NCBI RefSeq assembly: GCF_054482595.1
Contig: NZ_CM137008.1
Length of the DNA stretch: 64,000 nt
Reading direction: 5' to 3' (one strand)
Both the position numbers and the translations under genes were made by a program. Within the stretch, counting starts at the first letter, position 1. Every line of letters starts with the position of its first letter. This document shows, piece after piece, positions 14,227-58,027 of this stretch. The notes beneath the pieces were generated by a model. It worked only from the letters and a program-made list of their open reading frames with translations, did no database searches and was not told the DNA's origin.

Positions 14227-14703
14227 ATGAAACTCATCAGTAACGATCTGCGCGATGGCGATAAGTTGCCGCATCGTCATGTCTTTAACGGCATGGGTTA
14301 CGATGGCGATAATATTTCACCGCATCTGGCGTGGGATGATGTTCCTGCGGGAACGAAAAGTTTTGTTGTCACATGCTACGACCCGGATGCGCCAACCGGC
14401 TCCGGCTGGTGGCACTGGGTAGTTGTTAATTTACCCGCTGATACCCGCGTATTACCGCAAGGGTTTGGCTCTGGTCTGGTAGCAATGCCAGACGGCGTTT
14501 TGCAGACGCGTACCGATTTTGGTAAAACCGGATACGATGGCGCAGCGCCACCGAAAGGCGAAACCCATCGCTACATTTTTACCGTTCACGCGCTGGATGT
14601 AGAGCGTATTGATGTCGATGAAGGAGCCAGCGGCGCGATGGTCGGGTTTAACGTTCATTTCCACTCTCTGGCAAGCGCATCGATTACCGCGATGTTTAGT
14701 TAA
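14227..14703 (+). CDS. ybhB: PEBP/kinase-inhibitor family protein YbhB (158 aa)
   Basis: 158-aa ORF downstream of bioA; last host gene before the prophage junction. Confidence 0.85.
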   Translation: MKLISNDLRDGDKLPHRHVFNGMGYDGDNISPHLAWDDVPAGTKSFVVTCYDPDAPTGSGWWHWVVVNLPADTRVLPQGFGSGLVAMPDGVLQTRTDFGKTGYDGAAPPKGETHRYIFTVHALDVERIDVDEGASGAMVGFNVHFHSLASASITAMFS

Positions 14704-14793
14704 TCACTCTGCCAGATGGCGCAATGCTATCTGGTATCACTTAAAGGTATTAAAAACAACTTTTTGTCTTTTTACCTTCCCGTTTCGCTCAAG

Positions 14794-14808
14794 TTAGTAT
14801 AAAAAAGT
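14794..14808. other. attR core (P-O-B' junction, tailspike side)
   Basis: ttagtataaaaaagt = reverse complement of lambda core GCTTTTTTATACTAA with one substitution at the phage-side end; preceded by host cgctcaag, followed by lambda-P-arm-like sequence. Confidence 0.85.
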
Positions 14809-14954
14809 TGAATGTGAAACGGTAAAAACAATTAATATCAACAGCTTATAATTGATTCAGTCTAAAAAATAGACTGCATAATGCTACAAAACACAACATA
14901 TCCAGTCACTATGAATCAACCACTTAGATGGTATTAGTGACCTGTAACAGAGCA

Positions 14955-14996
14955 TTAGCGCAAGGTGATTTTTTTGTCTTCTTGCGCTAATTTTTT
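14955..14996. terminator. lambda sib/tI-like hairpin in residual b-region
   Basis: ttagcgcaag N20 cttgcgctaa followed by tttttt; resembles lambda sib retroregulator region as recalled. Confidence 0.5.
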
Positions 14997-15340
14997 GTCA
15001 ACACACTGGGTTAGCTGAATTTACAACCATGCTCAGTATCTCGATAAGCGCAGAGAAATGATGCAGTGGTGGGCGGATTGGCTTGATGAAAAAGTAGAGT
15101 GAGCGACCTTAATAACTATCGAATAGCACAAAGCCTTGCAGTCCAGTACAAAGCTTTGTGTGCATCAGTTTTGTCTTATCAACCACAGCAAGTCATCGAT
15201 CGATTGAGACTTGGATGATAGACTTCATGTCTTTGATTATTAGCTGACAAAAGAAATGTTAAAGCTATTTGCAAAGTACACCTCGATTGGCGTGCTGAAC
15301 ACACTTATACACTGGGTGCAACGGAATCCCAGGCGCACTA

Positions 15341-17266
15341 TTATTTAGCTTGAACCGTTAATATTTTCCCTCCAGAATATTCTGTAAGATTACTTATTTC
15401 ATTAGCCAAAAGCGCTTTGAACATATTTCGGTCCTGCCCGAAAACAACGCCAGAAAAGAAAGTCCCAAGGTTGCGGTAGCCGCCTACGGTCGGCATACGG
15501 ATAAACAGGTAAGACGTACCCTCGTACGTGCCGGTAAACCAAGCATCATAATCTGTGAGAGATTGGTTATCACAGTGAGCAGCTCTAACTAATTTTGCGC
15601 GGGTAGAGATATTGCTGCCTACTGTATTAAGGTCATACGCACCCGATATAGGATTAAGATCTTCCCCGCTGCGTAATGTATAAATAGTCCCAATGCACCC
15701 TCGTTTCCCATACTGACCACCAACGATACGATAATACGGCCCAGCAGACTGGTCTGGATTCGGCAACGCCATATCCCGACACATAGTGGTACTGAACGTT
15801 GGTATGGTTGCCAGCCCACCAAGATTACCTAATGTAGCGAAAGTTGCAGTTTTCGTGTCGTATGAATTCCTTTGAGGCCACGACGTTTCAAACTTATTGC
15901 TGTACACGATTTCTAACTTAGCACCGTTAGTTAAACGGGCCATCGCGCCATTGAAAGTAGTGGTCGAGCTGGCAATTAGTTGCTTAATACTTACTTTAGC
16001 ATAACCAGATAGGTCAAACATGTAGCTACCTGCAGCCTGCGTTTGATCGTACAGATGTATATTATCTATCTGTAAGTTAGCCCCGGTGCCCTTAATAATC
16101 GTACCGCTGTTCTGACGTGAAGGTTGTTCACAACCTAAAGACGAAATGCTGTACGAGCCTGCGTTAAAAATATACGGAATCCCAGCGCAATCGTCAGCGG
16201 CTAATGGACCAATTTCACAATATGAGCCCGTCAACTCAAAGGCACAGTAGTTTGTTTTAAACGCGTTACATTGGGATACTACGTAGCTTGCCCCCCCATG
16301 TATATGAATACCACCATATATCCCGGTAGCGTCGGAACCTTGGACAACGATTTCGCGGATGGAAACACCAACGAAGGTATTGCCGCCAAAATACATCCCC
16401 CATTTTTGCGCAAGGATAAACAGATCACTAAATTCCTGGTATACGGCGGTATTGGGAGTGTAATACCCGTAACTATCCGTTGTATCGTCCAGGATGCGTA
16501 GTCCACGGACAACATTACCACGTTTACCCTTGTTATAGAAAACAGCGTTAATATCCTGAGTTCCTACCGCCGTTTTGCGAATAATGGATGCACGACCCTC
16601 CCCGACGAATCGGCTACCATTTGGTTGATAGTATTTCTCATTGTAAACATCTTCCAAATCGTAAAGAAGAATAGAGTCCGATATCTCATATTCGCCAGCG
16701 GGCACAAATATAGTTTTTCCCAGTTGCGCGGATACAAGCGATGCTCGATTAAAAGAGAGCGTCCAATCTGGATCTGAATCCAGTTTAAAGTCCAGTACAG
16801 AAATAGTTTCAGAGTTTTTCTGGTGTTGCGTTCGATTTACGGCCCCGTTAAATGGTTGCCGAACAGCTATCTTCGCATCATTAACAATAGTAGGACCATA
16901 GTCTTGCGCCAACTCTGACCTTAGTTGATCAGGGTCATACTTAAGCACATTCGGAAAATAGAACTGCTGTGCACCATATGCATCATAAACAGCCATAGAA
17001 TGGCCTTGCACAGTTACGAACTTGGCAATCTGTCCGTTATATACAGGATACCCGCCAGCGTTAATGATGATTGGCTGTGCAACAGGAACGTGAGAACCGT
17101 CTTCATTCTCTACATAAACCTGAATCTGGTTTTCAGGATTTACCGGGTCAGTGTCAATTTTTCCGATATAAATTTTGCCATTGGCAACCGCTTTAAAAGA
17201 ACGCGCCATAGTGAAGAGTTGCGAAGGCATACTCACTACAACATTGGCATTTATTGAATCTGTCAT
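15341..17266 (-). CDS. P22-type tailspike (641 aa): conserved N-terminal head-binding domain, divergent receptor-binding body
   Basis: N-terminus [62 protein letters not shown]... closely parallels the P22 gp9 head-binding domain (recalled); remainder is beta-helix-like with different sequence. Confidence 0.85.
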
Positions 17267-17465: not shown

Positions 17466-18194
17466 TTATGCAACATTACTCCCATGAATCAGGTGTTGTA
17501 GTGCTTTAACACCTTCCTCATTGTAGCGGAATGCTTCCACCTGTTTGCTGGAATGCGCAGATTTATCCAGGAAGAACTTCCCGTACTGCTCAGTTTTGAG
17601 GTTGTTTGCGTTAGCAATGCGACCAATCTTGTTGGCCGTTACCCCAAGCTGCTCTGCAACCTCCCCTGCTGAGTAGTAATGCTCTTCTATTGCTGGAAGA
17701 GGTATTGCATTAAAACCAACGATCGGGTTGATTATGCTTGCTGCCGCAGTCTGCTTTGCTTCCGGCGCAAGATTTGGCATCAAATCGAACAGATTGGTAA
17801 CAGCTTCAACCGTCATTTTCAATGTTCGCGCCTGGCGATACTCAACAAGTCCACTAGACGATTTACCGCTTTTAATGTGCGCTTCTTGCATACTTTCAAG
17901 TTGGTCTACAAGTGAGCGGCGAACAGCTTTAGATTCACGAGCAGCCACTCGAAGGGCTTGCTTAATTGACATAACAACTTTTTCAGAAGTTGTCTTGTTT
18001 GATTTTTGAACTACGAAAATTTCGTAGTGCTCACCTTCAAGTTCATCCTTAATGCGTGCAATAAAGTCGTTATTGCGGACTTCTTTTTCCCCGCACTGTC
18101 TACGAGCATGATTGACCATCTCTAACAGGTACTGGCTATCAATGGTTTTATCCGTGACAACGGATCCGATGTTTGCTACATTCTTAAAAGTCAT
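17466..18194 (-). CDS. Putative antirepressor-like/regulatory protein (243 aa)
   Basis: ORF 17466..18245 trimmed to ATG at 18194 with AAGGA RBS; C-terminal region loosely resembles KilA-C/ORF6C-type antirepressor tails; sits between ant and tailspike. Confidence 0.35.
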   Translation of the reverse strand: MTFKNVANIGSVVTDKTIDSQYLLEMVNHARRQCGEKEVRNNDFIARIKDELEGEHYEIFVVQKSNKTTSEKVVMSIKQALRVAARESKAVRRSLVDQLESMQEAHIKSGKSSSGLVEYRQARTLKMTVEAVTNLFDLMPNLAPEAKQTAAASIINPIVGFNAIPLPAIEEHYYSAGEVAEQLGVTANKIGRIANANNLKTEQYGKFFLDKSAHSSKQVEAFRYNEEGVKALQHLIHGSNVA

Positions 18195-18282
18195 TAGGCA
18201 TTCCTTATGTGGTAGTAAGGGTGTGACATAGGCCGCCAGCAGCACACTGGCGGTTTTCTTTTTGCGCCGTCCGGCGCACCAA

Positions 18283-18909
18283 TCAATGAATCCATTCCTC
18301 GCCGCGCAGTTTTGCCAGCATTGGCTGAGCGTTCTTTACGACAAAATTGTTGGTATCAAGATTCTTCATTTCACGAAGAAGTGATTTCTTGGTTTCTTCT
18401 GACATGTAGCGAGTCTCATATGCAATATCGTAAATCCTTCCTGAAAGCTCAGAACCAATTTGCTTCATTCCTGGGTAGATGTGTTTGCACATTTGTTGAC
18501 TCTTCTCCATCCACAATTGTAAGTAGCAGAGATTAACCAGTTCTTCGTCAGTAAACTGTTTTGCAATCGGTGAGCATTCTGCCTGCCGATCCAAAATATC
18601 CAGCACCCAGCGGCGGAACTCTTTGGCTACCTGAGTGCGAGCAAACATCGCGATTAGGTGGGCACCGCGTAGTGAGAAAACACGCACTTTTTTGCGATAA
18701 TTTCCTGAGGTACTCACTTCGAGTACCTGAGTCATTCCGGCGCTAAACTCATCGCTATACTTGTTATAAATCATTGTTACTGCACGACTATTTGCGTATT
18801 TAAGTGCAGATGCAATATTAGATGATGTAAACCAAACACCATGCATATCACGGGTGGGCACCAATTCAACTCCGTGGAAGTTATAATCTGATTTTGCTAC
18901 AATATTCAT
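18283..18909 (-). CDS. ant: Antirepressor with Bro-N domain (about 208 aa; start uncertain)
   Basis: FHGVELVPTRDMHGVWFTSSNIASALKY...FSLRGAHLIAMFARTQVAKEFRRWVLDIL is Bro-N-like; ATG at 18909 has AAGGAA RBS; longer frame to 18993 would overlap arc. Confidence 0.6.
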   Translation of the reverse strand: MNIVAKSDYNFHGVELVPTRDMHGVWFTSSNIASALKYANSRAVTMIYNKYSDEFSAGMTQVLEVSTSGNYRKKVRVFSLRGAHLIAMFARTQVAKEFRRWVLDILDRQAECSPIAKQFTDEELVNLCYLQLWMEKSQQMCKHIYPGMKQIGSELSGRIYDIAYETRYMSEETKKSLLREMKNLDTNNFVVKNAQPMLAKLRGEEWIH

Positions 18910-18982
18910 GTTAGTTTCCTTGCATACGGTTACTGACATAGAGGCCCGGTTTGTGTTCACGCACTGCCGGGCTTCACTATTT

Positions 18983-19156
18983 TTACTGGGCATTAGCTCT
19001 TTCCTCTCTCAGGCTTTTAGCCAGTCGCTGCACAATCGCAGAGTTGATAGAAATTCCATCCATTTCAGCAACACGTCTAATCTCCTCCTTCATTCGCGCT
19101 GGCAAACGAAGCTGGAAACTTTGACTTTTACGACCTGTGTAAAGCACATCTTTCAT
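18983..19156 (-). CDS. arc: Arc-like ribbon-helix-helix repressor (57 aa)
   Basis: MKDVLYTGRKSQSFQLRLPARMKEEIRRVAEMDGISINSAIVQRL resembles P22 Arc (MetJ/Arc RHH fold). Confidence 0.7.
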   Translation of the reverse strand: MKDVLYTGRKSQSFQLRLPARMKEEIRRVAEMDGISINSAIVQRLAKSLREERANAQ

Positions 19157-19183
19157 AAGTAATCCTCCCACAATGATACCAAC

Positions 19184-27492: not shown

Positions 27493-27706
27493 CTGCTGCC
27501 GCCTTAGGTTTTCGACCAGGCTTTTTACGCTGTTTTTCTTCTGGCTCTGGCTCCGGCTCTGCAACATCCTTCAAAAGGTCATCAGGATGTGAAAACCAGC
27601 CAGCATCCAGATATTCCTGAAGCTCTTCGGCTTTCACGATTTCAAAGTCGTATCCAACGCCTTTCCATTTCTTCATGTCGCCATGACGAAAGATCATGTG
27701 TGTCAT
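27470..27706 (-). CDS. Small charged protein (78 aa) between coat and gp4
   Basis: ATG at 27706 with GGAGA RBS directly after the coat terminator; Pro/Glu/Lys-rich tail; overlaps gp4 start by 23 nt. Confidence 0.4.
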
Positions 27707-44083: not shown

Positions 44084-44362
44084 TCAGGCCTCGAAGAATT
44101 CGCCGTTCTTCGGGGCTTTTTCTTTTGTCAGCATTCTGGCTACTTTCTTAGCCAGTTCCGCCAACTCCTCGTCTTCAACACCCCATTCAAGAACAGCCAG
44201 AAGCATTCCCATTTTTGGGATGAAGCTGTCTTTCCATCGCGAAATTTGCGATTCATTAATCCCTAATGCATCAGCAACCTTTCGCTGACCACGTACAGCA
44301 ATTCGATTCAGGATGTTGCTTGTAATTGCATTCGCTTTCTTGCGAGTACTTGTAAGTTGCAT
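44084..44362 (-). CDS. cII: CII-type transcriptional activator (92 aa; start chosen downstream of nutR)
   Basis: ...RKVADALGINESQISRWKDSFIPKMGMLLAVLEWGVEDEELAELAKKVARMLT parallels lambda CII HTH and C-terminal region. Confidence 0.75.
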   Translation of the reverse strand: MQLTSTRKKANAITSNILNRIAVRGQRKVADALGINESQISRWKDSFIPKMGMLLAVLEWGVEDEELAELAKKVARMLTKEKAPKNGEFFEA

Positions 44363-44420
44363 ATGTAAGTATTTCCTTAACAAATAAGAAGTTATGCGCA
44401 TCAACTTATGCGCGTTGTAT

Positions 44421-44464
44421 TCCCGCATTTCGGCGGGAATGAGGACCATGACTGTTAAAGAGCG
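44421..44464 (-). promoter_or_regulatory. nutR (boxA + boxB) between cro and cII
   Basis: minus strand boxA CGCTCTTTAACA (44464..44453) then boxB hairpin TCCCGC-CGAAAT-GCGGGA (44438..44421). Confidence 0.7.
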
Positions 44465-45515: not shown

Positions 45516-45757
45516 CCGATAATCAGAAGAAGACTTACGGAAGTGCGGAGGGATAATGGAATTTCTGATAGTTTTTGTTGTTGTTTTGGTCATCATTCTT
45601 TTTGTTTTGCTAAGCATTAGCAAAAAGCTATCTCAAATGATTGAACATAGCTCTAATCGCGCAAAATAGACTGGCCCCCTGAATCTCCAGACAACCAATA
45701 TCACTTATTTAAGTGATAGTCTTAATACTAGTTTTTAGACTAGTCATTGGAGAGCAG

Positions 45758-46123
45758 ATGATTGATGTCTTAGGACCGGAGAAACGCAGACGGCGTACTA
45801 CACAGGAAAAGATCGCTATTGTTCAGCAGAGTTTTGAACCGGGAATGACAGTCTCCCTTGTTGCCCGGCAACACGGTGTGGCAGCCAGCCAGTTATTTCT
45901 CTGGCGCAAGCAATACCAGGAGGGAAGTCTTACTGCTGTGGCCGCAGGAGAACAGGTCGTTCCTGCCTCTGAACTTGCTGCCGCCATGAAGCAGATTAAA
46001 GAACTCCAGCGCCTGCTCGGCAAAAAAACGATGGAAAATGAACTCCTTAAAGAAGCCGTTGAATACGGGCGTGCAAAAAAGTGGATAGCGCACGCGCCCT
46101 TATTGCCCGGGGATGGGGAGTAA
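45758..46123 (+). CDS. insC: IS2 transposase OrfA (InsC, 121 aa)
   Basis: [58 protein letters not shown]3-family HTH OrfA. Confidence 0.9.
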
Positions 46124-46986
46124 GCTTAGTCAGCCGTTGTCTCCGGGTGTCGCGTGCGCAGTTGCACGTCATTCTCAGACGAACCGATGACTGGAAAGAT
46201 GGTCGCCGCAGCCGTCACTCAGATGATACGGATGTGCTTCTCCGTATACACCATGTTATCGGAGAGCTGCCCACATATGGTTATCGTCGGGTATGGGCGC
46301 TGCTTCGCAGACAGGCCGAACTTGATGGTATGCCTGCGATCAATGCCAAACGTATTTACCGGATCATGCGCCAGAATGCGCTGTTGCTTGAGCGAAAACC
46401 CGCTGTACCGCCATCGAAACGGGCACATACCGGCAGAGTGGCTGTGAAAGAAAGTAATCAGCGATGGTGCTCTGACGGGTTCGAGTTCCGCTGTGATAAC
46501 GGAGAAAAACTGCGAGTCACGTTCGCGCTGGACTGCTGTGACCGTGAGGCACTGCACTGGGCGGTCACTACGGGCGGCTTCAACAGTGAAACAGTACAGG
46601 ACGTCATGCTGGGAGCGGTGGAACGCCGTTTCGGCAACGAGCTTCCGGCGTCTCCAGTAGAGTGGCTGACGGATAATGGTTCATGCTACCGGGCTAATGA
46701 AACACGGCAGTTTGCCCGGATGTTGGGGCTTGAACCGAAGAACACGGCGGTGCGGAGTCCGGAGAGTAACGGCATAGCAGAGAGCTTCGTGAAAACGATA
46801 AAGCGTGACTACATCAGTGTCATGCCCAAACCAGACGGGTTAACGGCAGCAAAGAACCTTGCAGAGGCATTCGAGCATTATAACGAATGGCATCCGCATA
46901 GTGCACTGGGTTATCGCTCGCCACGGGAATATCTACGGCAGCAAGCCAGTAATGGGTTAAGTGATAACAGGTGTCTGGAAATATAG
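46081..46986 (+). CDS. insD: IS2 transposase OrfB (InsD, 301 aa; expressed as InsCD by frameshift)
   Basis: DDE integrase-type translation overlapping orfA 3' end in a different frame. Confidence 0.9.
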
Positions 46987-47191
46987 GGGCAAATCCACAA
47001 AAGAAGAAGAGCATCTAATTGATATAAAAGAGATTCTATCTGATATAAAAATCACATTAGATGAAATAAAATACACAACAGATCTAATTGAACAGTATAA
47101 AATACCAACCCCAAACGAGAGAAAAGCAATAGATCAATATCGTATTGACTTAGAAATCGACGAAATGCTAAGCAAAAGAAAAGACTAAAAA

Positions 47192-47220: not shown

Positions 47221-47349
47221 CCTGCCGTTCACCACCCAATCACCCATCATCATCATAGACAAGCATCAAGCCAAAGGTAACACCTTCACCCCGCACGCAA
47301 GCCCTCAAACACCAATCAATCAGCAACATTTACAAAAATAAAATACATT

Positions 47350-47426
47350 TGTTATCCATCACTTATAACTTATTTACCACAAAATATAAGTTAGGTTATT
47401 GACCACACCTATAACCTAAGTTATCT
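47350..47426. promoter_or_regulatory. OL operators / pL region
   Basis: Same half-site family as OR (ataagttaggttat, ataacctaagttat) upstream of nutL and N. Confidence 0.55.
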
Positions 47427-47472
47427 TTAAGCCATCAGCAGGACGCTGGTAGCCAAACGGAACAGATTGGCA

Positions 47473-47514
47473 GGCTCTTTAACATTGATGGGATTGTCCC
47501 GCCGAAATGCGGGA
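47473..47514 (+). promoter_or_regulatory. nutL (boxA + boxB)
   Basis: boxA GGCTCTTTAACA (47473..47484) and boxB TCCCGC-CGAAAT-GCGGGA (47497..47514), identical to nutR boxB. Confidence 0.7.
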
Positions 47515-47708: not shown

Positions 47709-48008
47709 ATGACAGTAGTCATTACATATCTGGCTGACGATAACGCCAGAAATCGCCGCAGAGCACGCAGACAGACTCAACGTGAACAGGCAATGCAAGA
47801 GCAGCGACTGGCGCGAAAAATTGCGCTAAAGCTCTCTGGTTGCGTCAGAGCAGATAAAGCAGCATCACTCGGAAGCCTTCGCTGCAAGAAGGCAGAAGAA
47901 GTCGAGCGTAAACAGAACCGTATTTACTACCGCAAGCCACGCAGTGAAATGGGTGTGACTTGTGTTGGTCGCCAGAAAATGAAATTAGGCAGCAAACCAC
48001 TTATTTGA
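47709..48008 (+). CDS. N: Antiterminator N (99 aa)
   Basis: Arg-rich N-terminus (NARNRRRARRQTQREQ) and C-terminus RIYYRKPRSEMGVTCVGRQKMKLGSKPLI paralleling lambda N. Confidence 0.8.
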   Translation: MTVVITYLADDNARNRRRARRQTQREQAMQEQRLARKIALKLSGCVRADKAASLGSLRCKKAEEVERKQNRIYYRKPRSEMGVTCVGRQKMKLGSKPLI

Positions 48009-55292: not shown

Positions 55293-55318
55293 AAGCCGCC
55301 TGATGGCGGTTTTTTCTT
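55293..55318 (+). terminator. Rho-independent terminator upstream of xis
   Basis: agccgcc tgat ggcgg followed by ttttttctt. Confidence 0.6.
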
Positions 55319-55342
55319 GCGTGTAATTGCGGAGACTTTGCG

Positions 55343-55561
55343 ATGTACTTGACACTTCAGGAGTGGAACGCACGCCAGCGACGCCCAAGAAGCCTTGAAA
55401 CAGTTCGTCGATGGGTACGCGAGTGCAGGATATTCCCTCCTCCGGTTAAGGATGGAAGAGAGTATCTGTTCCACGAATCAGCGGTAAAGGTTGACTTAAA
55501 TCGACCAGTAACAGGTAGCCTTTTGAAGAGGATCAGAAATGGGAAGAAGGCGAAGTCATGA
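55343..55561 (+). CDS. xis: Excisionase Xis, lambda-type (72 aa)
   Basis: MYLTLQEWNARQRRPRSLETVRRWVRECRIFPPPVKDGREYLFHESAVKVDLNRP matches lambda Xis as recalled. Confidence 0.93.
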   Translation: MYLTLQEWNARQRRPRSLETVRRWVRECRIFPPPVKDGREYLFHESAVKVDLNRPVTGSLLKRIRNGKKAKS

Positions 55562-56609
55562 GCGCCGGGATTTACCCCCTAACCTTTATATAAGAAACAA
55601 TGGATATTACTGCTACAGGGACCCAAGGACGGGTAAAGAGTTTGGATTAGGCAGAGACAGGCGAATCGCAATCACTGAAGCCATACAGGCCAACATTGAG
55701 TTATTTTCAGGACACAAACACAAGCCTCTGACAGCGAGAATCAACAGTGATAATTCCGTTACGTTACATTCATGGCTTGATCGCTACGAAAAAATCCTGG
55801 CCAGCAGAGGAATCAAGCAGAAGACACTCATAAATTACATGAGCAAAATTAAAGCAATACGGGGGGGGCTGCCTGATGCTCCACTTGAAGACATCACCAC
55901 AAAAGAAATTGCGGCAATGCTCAATGGATACATAGACGAGGGCAAGGCGGCGTCAGCCAAGTTAATCAGATCAACACTGAGCGATGCATTCCGAGAGGCA
56001 ATAGCTGAAGGCCATATAACAACAAACCCTGTCGCTGCCACTCGCGCAGCAAAATCAGAGGTAAGGAGATCAAGACTTACGGCTGACGAATACCTGAAAA
56101 TTTATCAAGCAGCAGAATCATCACCATGTTGGCTCAGACTTGCAATGGAACTGGCTGTTGTTACCGGGCAACGAGTTGGTGATTTATGCGAAATGAAGTG
56201 GTCTGATATCGTAGATGGATATCTTTATGTCGAGCAAAGCAAAACAGGCGTAAAAATTGCCATCCCAACAACATTGCATGTTGATGCTCTCGGGATATCA
56301 ATGAAGGAAACACTCGATAAATGCAAAGAGATTCTTGGCGGAGAAACCATAATTGCATCTACTCGTCGTGAACCGCTTTCATCCGGCACAGTATCAAGGT
56401 ATTTTATGCGCGCACGAAAAGCATCAGGTCTTTCCTTCGAAGGGGATCCGCCTACCTTTCACGAGTTGCGCAGTTTGTCTGCAAGACTCTATGAGAAGCA
56501 GATAAGCGATAAGTTTGCTCAACATCTTCTCGGGCATAAGTCGGACACCATGGCATCACAGTATCGTGATGACAGAGGCAGGGAGTGGGACAAAATTGAA
56601 ATCAAATAA
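55539..56609 (+). CDS. int: Integrase Int, lambda-type tyrosine recombinase (356 aa)
   Basis: MGRRRSHERRDLPPNLYIRNNGYYCYRDPRTGKEFGLGRDRRIAITEAIQ... matches lambda Int as recalled; overlaps xis end. Confidence 0.95.
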   Translation: MGRRRSHERRDLPPNLYIRNNGYYCYRDPRTGKEFGLGRDRRIAITEAIQANIELFSGHKHKPLTARINSDNSVTLHSWLDRYEKILASRGIKQKTLINYMSKIKAIRGGLPDAPLEDITTKEIAAMLNGYIDEGKAASAKLIRSTLSDAFREAIAEGHITTNPVAATRAAKSEVRRSRLTADEYLKIYQAAESSPCWLRLAMELAVVTGQRVGDLCEMKWSDIVDGYLYVEQSKTGVKIAIPTTLHVDALGISMKETLDKCKEILGGETIIASTRREPLSSGTVSRYFMRARKASGLSFEGDPPTFHELRSLSARLYEKQISDKFAQHLLGHKSDTMASQYRDDRGREWDKIEIK

Positions 56610-56682
56610 TGATTTTATTTTGACTGATAGTGACCTGTTCGTTGCAACAAATTGATAAGCAATGCTTTTTTATAATGCCAAC

Positions 56683-56697
56683 TTAGTATAAAAAAGC
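56683..56697. other. attL core (B-O-P' junction, int side)
   Basis: ttagtataaaaaagc = reverse complement of GCTTTTTTATACTAA; 56610..56682 matches lambda P' arm as recalled; followed by host aggc... Confidence 0.9.
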
Positions 56698-56743: not shown

Positions 56744-58027
56744 GTGAACACATTTTCAGTTTCCCGTCTGGCGCTGGCATTGGCTTTTGGCGTGACGCTG
56801 ACCGCCTGTAGCTCAACACCACCCGATCAACGTCCTTCTGATCAAACTGCGCCTGGTACCTCTTCTCGCCCGATTCTGTCGGCAAAAGAAGCGCAGAATT
56901 TCGATGCTCAACACTATTTTGCATCCCTGACACCAGGTGCTGCAGCGTGGAATCCGTCCCCGATAACCCTGCCTGCGCAACCTGACTTTGTTGTCGGCCC
57001 GGCGGGTACTCAAGGTGTAACGCATACCACGATTCAGGCGGCGGTAGATGCGGCAATTATCAAGCGCACCAACAAGCGCCAGTATATTGCCGTGATGCCT
57101 GGTGAGTATCAGGGAACGGTGTATGTCCCTGCTGCTCCAGGTGGAATTACTCTGTACGGTACAGGTGAAAAACCGATTGATGTGAAGATTGGGCTTTCCC
57201 TTGATGGGGGCATGAGCCCTGCCGACTGGCGTCACGACGTCAACCCGCGCGGCAAATATATGCCAGGTAAACCAGCGTGGTATATGTACGATAGCTGCCA
57301 GAGCAAACGCAGCGACAGTATCGGTGTTCTGTGTTCTGCGGTCTTCTGGTCACAAAACAATGGCCTGCAACTGCAAAACCTGACCATCGAAAACACGCTG
57401 GGTGATAGCGTAGATGCGGGTAACCATCCGGCGGTGGCACTGCGTACTGACGGTGACCAGGTACAGATTAACAACGTTAACATTCTCGGTCGTCAGAACA
57501 CCTTCTTTGTCACCAACAGCGGTGTGCAGAACCGTCTGGAAACGAATCGTCAGCCGCGTACGCTGGTGACCAACAGCTACATTGAAGGGGATGTGGATAT
57601 CGTTTCTGGTCGCGGCGCAGTGGTGTTCGATAACACCGAATTCCGCGTGGTGAACTCACGTACTCAGCAAGAAGCGTATGTGTTTGCACCGGCTACGCTG
57701 TCCAACATTTACTACGGTTTCCTCGCCGTAAACAGCCGTTTCAATGCTTCCGGTGATGGCGTGGCACAACTGGGCCGCTCGCTGGATGTTGATGCCAATA
57801 CCAACGGTCAGGTGGTGATCCGTGATAGCGCCATCAACGAAGGTTTTAATACGGCTAAACCGTGGGGCGATGCGGTGATCTCTAATCGTCCGTTTGCGGG
57901 TAACACCGGCAGCGTTGACGATAGCGACGAAATACAGCGCAATCTGAATGACACTAACTACAACCGCATGTGGGAATACAATAACCGCGGCGTGGGTAGC
58001 AAAGTGGTTGCAGAGGCGAAGAAGTAA
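56744..58027 (+). CDS. ybhC: Pectinesterase-like outer membrane lipoprotein YbhC (427 aa)
   Basis: Signal peptide with lipobox LTAC; 427 aa; host gene on the gal side of attB-lambda. Confidence 0.88.
   Translation: MNTFSVSRLALALAFGVTLTACSSTPPDQRPSDQTAPGTSSRPILSAKEAQNFDAQHYFASLTPGAAAWNPSPITLPAQPDFVVGPAGTQGVTHTTIQAAVDAAIIKRTNKRQYIAVMPGEYQGTVYVPAAPGGITLYGTGEKPIDVKIGLSLDGGMSPADWRHDVNPRGKYMPGKPAWYMYDSCQSKRSDSIGVLCSAVFWSQNNGLQLQNLTIENTLGDSVDAGNHPAVALRTDGDQVQINNVNILGRQNTFFVTNSGVQNRLETNRQPRTLVTNSYIEGDVDIVSGRGAVVFDNTEFRVVNSRTQQEAYVFAPATLSNIYYGFLAVNSRFNASGDGVAQLGRSLDVDANTNGQVVIRDSAINEGFNTAKPWGDAVISNRPFAGNTGSVDDSDEIQRNLNDTNYNRMWEYNNRGVGSKVVAEAKK

Follow-up and report, generated by a model that had tools for sequence, protein, structure and literature searches.

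The classical attB of phage lambda lies between gal and bio. In the tI/sib hairpin of this phage (J02459, around 27,536-27,585), the closest described relative of the element studied here, pairing beyond the U tract makes the read-through RNA a substrate of RNase III. The logic of retroregulation by sib is summarised in passages of PMC2951348 and PMC5300877, which credit Schindler & Echols 1981, and a passage of PMC5371410 cites Plunkett & Echols 1989 on sib.

Studying a window of 64,000 nucleotides, by which we mean the whole stretch of DNA analysed and to which all positions refer, reveals an insert of approximately 41.9 kb between ybhC and ybhB, the lambda attachment site of E. coli. The prophage is not lambda itself but a podovirus of the P22-like kind that carries the integration module of lambda. 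With a probability of roughly 0.93, the hairpin discussed here is the tI terminator/sib site of a lambda-type int-xis-attP-sib module on this P22-like prophage at ybhC-ybhB. This reading is based on identity, position, strand, fold and partner elements, while termination, RNase III cleavage and decay are carried over from lambda. As such the hairpin is an ordinary, already characterised regulatory site and already known. The hairpin and its parts are the following.

14947-14998, plus strand: hairpin assigned to sib/tI by its fold, by alignment to lambda, 434 and O276, and by the annotated tI of O276 and terminator of 434
14947-14952 with 14993-14998, plus strand: lower stem of 6 bp, ACAGAG/UUUUGU
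14954-14965 with 14980-14991, plus strand: main stem of 12 bp, AUUAGCGCAAGG/UCUUGCGCUAAU
14967-14969 with 14976-14978, plus strand: upper stem of 3 bp
14970-14975, plus strand: U-rich apical loop
14991-14996, plus strand: U tract of 6 U, overlapping the 3' arm

The earlier note had placed the element at 14955-14996, where the letters are TTAGCGCAAGGTGATTTTTTTGTCTTCTTGCGCTAATTTTTT. This span does hold the GC-rich stem and the 6-T tract, but it leaves out the first A of the stem (14954), and the full dyad extends over 14947-14998. A repeat finder gives two arms of 18 nt each (14947-14964 and 14981-14998) that are 83% complementary, and the pairing of 14947-14998 is an interrupted hairpin of 21 bp followed by the U tract. 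The plus-strand RNA of 14935-15010 folds with -28.9 kcal/mol, compared to a mean of -14.1 kcal/mol for 200 dinucleotide shuffles (z = -5.54), none of which folds as well. The hairpin alone (14947-14998) reaches -23.8 kcal/mol, its lambda counterpart -23.6 kcal/mol. No ORF of 30 or more amino acids overlapping the hairpin was found.

The 12-bp main stem and the 6 U that follow it are those of an intrinsic terminator (tI), as predicted from the fold and from the annotation in relatives. A simple terminator scan with a loop rule of 3-8 nt did not list the hairpin, because the long loop and the interrupted upper stem break the rules of the scan. This miss is a limit of the scan and no evidence against the hairpin. 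The full 6-bp lower stem requires G14997 and U14998, which lie beyond the U tract. Because an RNA ending at 14996 can already form four of the six lower-stem pairs when folded in silico, terminated and read-through RNA are not clearly told apart by the fold alone.

The position of the hairpin is best described together with the attachment sites, the recombination genes and the neighbouring tailspike gene.

14794-14808, minus strand: attR core (POB'), reading ACTTTTTTATACTAA, whose outermost base differs from lambda GCTTTTTTATACTAA
14809-14946, plus strand: P arm of attR, by alignment and by the lambda 'int 1'/'int 2' binding features
14903-14912: arm-type Int site P2, CAGTCACTAT, by lambda alignment
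14930-14944: arm-type Int site P1, reverse complement CAGGTCACTAATACC, by lambda alignment
15341-17266, minus strand: tailspike of 641 aa with a P22-type head-binding N-terminus
55343-55561, plus strand: xis, 71/72 identical to lambda Xis
55539-56609, plus strand: int, 352/356 identical to lambda Int
56610-56682, plus strand: P' arm of attL, identical to lambda
56683-56697, minus strand: attL core (BOP'), reading GCTTTTTTATACTAA, with host ybhC following at 56744

The att core TTTTTTATACTAA occurs exactly twice in the window (14794-14806 and 56683-56695), with 0.08 occurrences expected by chance. The left copy comes after bioA and ybhB and has a B'-O-P composition, and the right copy, before ybhC, is P'-O-B; the identities of bioA, ybhB and ybhC were taken from NCBIfam equivalogs. 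The hairpin starts 3 nt after P1, with the Int-binding sites called 'int 1' and 'int 2' in lambda directly upstream. What the earlier note had said about this geometry holds. The hairpin is indeed located beside attR, 139 nt inside it and with the core next to ybhB. The claimed 41 kb between hairpin and int correspond to 40.5 kb up to the start and 41.6 kb up to the stop of int, and the integration module is of the lambda type, as had been concluded, with Int and Xis 99% lambda and BOP'/POB' att sites at ybhC-ybhB (gal-bio). A host-derived hairpin was considered and excluded by the phage-side position at the attR core and by the identity in free phage genomes.

When attL and attR are rejoined in silico, 226 nt separate the int stop from the stem base, exactly the lambda spacing, and the hairpin is on the int-sense strand. 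In the reconstituted attP, P', core, P2/P1 and hairpin are conserved, whereas the central P arm has diverged from lambda and is nearer to 434. In lambda this central P arm is the place of the IHF, Xis and Fis sites. In the window it is only about 75-80% identical to lambda (14809-14900), although Int and Xis are at 99%, which is mosaicism inside attP itself.

The same geometry could give the hairpin an additional task in the lysogen, compatible with a sib function, as an insulator of the junction against read-through from ybhB/bioA that would run antisense into the tailspike gene. The gene ybhB, encoded on the strand of the hairpin, extends to 14703, which leaves 244 nt before the hairpin; a consensus scan shows no terminator-like site from its stop to the hairpin; tI is oriented to halt plus-strand transcription; and the tailspike gene (15341-17266, minus strand) is convergent. 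However, such an effect is a passive consequence of geometry, and the hairpin is equally conserved in free phage genomes, which have no host junction. We therefore regard this added role as unlikely.

The two strands of the hairpin are not equivalent. On the plus strand the stem contains three G.U pairs and is accompanied by the U tract, while on the minus strand the G.U pairs turn into A.C mismatches, the lower stem is lost and the U tract is absent. Because G.U pairs and U tract exist on the plus strand only, the strand specificity of the hairpin speaks for a function as RNA in the orientation of int. Transcription of the tailspike gene heads towards the hairpin, and the minus strand keeps a core stem of 11 bp (-20.9 kcal/mol for 66 nt, z = -4.4), so that a terminator or 3' stabiliser of this convergent late transcript on the minus strand was also considered. 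This is very improbable. The missing U tract and the lower stem abolished by A.C mismatches led us to reject a minus-strand terminator of the tailspike operon. Besides, the hairpin travels with int/attP and not with tail genes, being the same in lambda and 434 with their siphovirus tails, and in the 56 loci described below it is followed downstream by 17 different 10-mers, which fall into at least six unrelated types.

The earlier note had also claimed a resemblance to lambda sib/tI and had proposed an alignment with lambda sib as the check, with a lack of similarity as the outcome speaking against it. A four-way alignment of the window, lambda J02459, phage 434 and O276 confirms the resemblance: the arm sites P1 and P2 and the hairpin match lambda, and within the hairpin the only deviation from the three phages is an insertion of 2 T in the loop. 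The match spans from the P2 arm-type site (CAGTCACTAT, 14903) to ...TTTTTTGTCA (15000), and the only exceptions in 14903-15000 are a C/T difference at 14921, in the P arm between the arm sites, and the two extra T in the apical loop, where the T-run counts 7 T in the window versus 5 T in lambda and 434. Because all stem bases are those of wild-type lambda, a check of the positions of sib mutations and cuts is unnecessary for the identity claim. The phage records found by megablast of 14700-15300 include lambda, 434, lambda hybrids, HK106, HK629, HK630, O276, mEp332 and others. In O276 the same 40 nt carry the label 'Transcription terminator tI', and the curated record of 434 has them as 'terminator'.

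In phage DN1 (MF374379) a 162-nt 'antisense RNA' is annotated at 900-1061 on the minus strand, an annotation copied from BL21(DE3). It lies on the opposite strand, ends exactly at the end of the sib dyad and corresponds to the b region of lambda where it adjoins sib. An Rfam search of these 162 nt matched no family.

For the hairpin itself an Rfam search at a permissive E-value with the sequences from the window, lambda, 434 and DN1 gave no relevant match. Rfam contains no sib/tI family model, so there is no covariance-model score, and the name 'Sib' in Rfam and in the literature stands for an unrelated antitoxin sRNA.

In order to compare a larger number of loci, the 15-mer of the P1 arm, and not the hairpin, was used as anchor in IMG/VR, which gave 90 stretches. 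Together with the window, lambda, 434 and O276, these stretches yield 56 loci that have the hairpin, which occurs in 19 variants. A set of loci collected by Int was discarded as uninformative, since it consisted of at least about 80 near-identical copies, mostly apparent prophage ends beside host flank without sib. Among the 56 loci, 18 of the 21 pairs are invariant and 98.4% of the cells are paired, versus 42-63% with the partners slid. A covariation test on the 19 distinct variants found no compensatory pairs; the element is too conserved to give covariation support either way, and the structure rests on thermodynamics, conservation and the lambda precedent.

In the 56 loci, conservation breaks off right where the extended stem ends on its 3' side (...TTTTTTGTCA). 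Variation is found in the loop, whose T-run most often has 6 T (34 loci), less often 5 T (15 loci) and rarely 8 T (four loci) or 7 T (three loci); the 7-T loop of the window (14969-14975) is common to two other loci. This polymorphism looks like homopolymer slippage that is tolerated by the hairpin.

Of 5426 complete E. coli genomes, 945 contain a 100-mer that covers P2, P1 and the hairpin, and in the ten matches listed no annotated feature lies under it. The idea that the inverted repeat arose by chance in intergenic DNA has nothing in its favour beyond the AT-rich context; it is ruled out by the z-value of -5.5, the lambda identity and the 945 E. coli genomes, and its probability is practically negligible.

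The conservation also bears on the question whether the hairpin might be an intrinsic terminator (tI) only, with RNase III retroregulation inoperative in the P22-like background, either because the N-like factor fails to suppress tI or because the enlarged loop alters processing. The stem with its 6-U tract is a textbook terminator, the public records say only 'terminator', the antiterminator is not lambda N, and the loop is 2 nt off that of lambda. However, the RNase III substrate of lambda is unchanged at every paired position, and the conservation in the 56 loci covers the lower stem past the terminator and ends at its 3' end, which is not required for a terminator. The loop naturally varies from 5 to 8 T, and the same site is found in phage 434 and in imm21 and imm434 lambda hybrids. 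A function restricted to termination thus appears quite improbable to us.

For the preferred reading, a tI/sib site acting in retroregulation, partner elements are needed, and candidates for all of them are found in the early region and upstream of int.

44084-44449, minus strand: gene of a cII-like activator (phrog_191, E = 4e-37)
approximately 47340-47430: operator-like repeats and pL candidate, upstream of the nutL-like site
47474-47514, plus strand: nutL-like site, a candidate from position and consensus, by sequence and fold
47474-47484, plus strand: boxA-like GCTCTTTAACA
47497-47514, plus strand: boxB-like hairpin of 6 bp, by fold
47709-48008, plus strand: gene of an N-like antitermination protein (phrog_271, E = 1.6e-36)
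55296-55315: terminator-like hairpin with T tract just upstream of the CII repeat, by fold; a terminator is annotated in 434
55317-55330, plus strand: CII-binding repeat TTGC-N6-TTGC of pI, TTGCGTGTAATTGC, identical to lambda; 434 annotates pI and the CII site

The whole pI region, including the upstream hairpin and T tract, is identical to lambda. The early region harbours genes for an O-like replication protein, for cII-like, cro-like and cI-like regulators and for the N-like antiterminator, and every sizeable ORF between N and int is encoded on the plus strand, in an unbroken operon. As far as sequences can tell, the elements needed for retroregulation are all present. The antiterminator is N-like and not lambda N, and that it overrides tI is assumed here.

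An IS2-like element of 1331 bp (window 45667-46997), whose transposase ORFs belong to the IS3 family (phrog_151, phrog_157), sits between the cI-like repressor gene and pL, with the 5-bp target CAAAA duplicated on either side. Excising it in silico restores an ORF of 98 aa (45556 to 47188) whose product starts with a transmembrane helix; exclusion genes expressed in the lysogen usually occupy this position. The pL-N-int operon is uninterrupted by this insertion.

By analogy to lambda the following course of events can be proposed. In the circular genome, infecting or excised, the hairpin would lie 226 nt past the int stop, across attP and on the int-sense strand. The cII-like product would drive pI, and the CII-activated pI transcripts would stop at the stem and U tract (tI). 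The terminated pI RNA would keep a protective 3' hairpin, so that Int would be made without Xis and integration would be favoured. Transcripts from pL, antiterminated by N, would pass tI and form a longer duplex, in which ACAGAG pairs with UUUUGU below the main stem. This duplex would be cut by RNase III, and 3'-to-5' exonucleases would degrade the RNA back into int, which would keep Int low relative to Xis. That RNase III processes this particular hairpin is expected from its identity with lambda.

Integration would split attP, leaving the hairpin at attR and taking int to attL about 41 kb away. After induction the xis-int transcripts from pL would then enter ybhC and not sib, retroregulation would not take place, and this escape from sib would allow Int and Xis to be made together for excision.

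The region of 17.3-42 kb is 95% identical to the P22-like phages HZ41, IME10 and APC_JM3.2, in which P22 gene names are used. The tailspike protein is named "phage head-binding domain-containing protein" by PGAP in related genomes. Beside the tailspike gene (window 17466-19171, minus strand) there are ORFs resembling a P22 immI-type region, with candidates for a pair of antirepressor-like proteins, 259 aa and 236 aa long, and for an Arc/Mnt-like protein of 62 aa; at this position the annotation of a related genome has an 'Arc family DNA-binding protein'.

Directly after the hairpin, the window contains the 3' remnant of an IntS/P4-type integrase gene (15001-15102, plus strand; ...YLDKRREMMQWWADWLDEKVE followed by the stop at 15100-15102), which phage 434 has and lambda lacks. 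In the E. coli strains CH468, MB06022 and S43, the DNA homologous from window position 15019 on is the end of an intact intS, which adjoins gtrA and a tailspike gene. Because the homologous DNA is the end of an intact intS in these strains, it seems that the lambda int-att-sib module replaced an IntS module by recombination inside the 3' end of intS.

A second hairpin (CACAAAGCCTTG...CAAAGCTTTGTG, window 15127-15160, both strands) is conserved in the window, in 434 and in lambda (L001, around 1735-1775), where it follows sib after about 30 nt, compared to about 130 nt here. It folds better on the minus strand (-19.7 kcal/mol, z = -2.0) and may be the old terminator of intS or a terminator of the tailspike transcript. 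Further on, at 15256-15348 (plus strand), all that is left of a GtrA-family flippase gene (MLKLFAKYTSIGVLNTLIHWV...) is its start of about 20 codons, which abuts the tailspike gene at its end; the gtr module for O-antigen modification has been lost by deletion.

Beyond the classical role, the hairpin could be seen as an insulator of the lysogen junction and as the boundary of a recombination module at the 3' end of the stem, with the loop T-run (5-8 T) perhaps serving as a slippage-prone tuner of the strength of retroregulation, a combined proposal which we consider rather doubtful.

The assignment confirms the insert of about 41.9 kb as a complete prophage, in which lambda-type control of integration and excision appears intact on a P22-like chassis. 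Beyond annotation this is of little importance. Mildly notable are only that the chassis is P22-like, that a mosaic boundary coincides with the 3' end of the hairpin, and that the hairpin is missing from Rfam and unannotated in the E. coli records looked at. Building a sequence or covariance model of tI/sib would improve annotation with little effort and provide a convenient marker of lambda-type attR ends.

Comparing the hairpin with generic Rho-independent terminators, both have a GC-rich stem followed by 6 U, but here conserved pairing continues underneath the terminator stem, through the U tract and past it. Phage 434, mEp332 and PhiR70_1 have an attP-terminator region in which the hairpin is identical but for the length of the loop, and they share with the window the distal flank with the 3' remnant of the IntS-type integrase; mEp332 and PhiR70_1 are 98% identical over window 14790/14806-15100. 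Phage 434 differs in its virion module, which is that of a siphovirus and annotated as such, and in its loop T-run of 5.

With lambda tI/sib the hairpin has every paired position, the U tract and the abutment on the P1 arm-type site in common. Strand, the spacing of 226 nt from the int stop in attP, attB (ybhC-ybhB) and the separation from int in the prophage are likewise shared, Int and Xis are 99% identical, and the pI/CII site is the same. The differences to lambda are a loop T-run of 7 instead of 5, a central P arm which is about 75-80% identical and nearer to 434, a flank distal to the hairpin that is unrelated for about 105 bp, and a P22-like chassis with a non-lambda N-like antiterminator.
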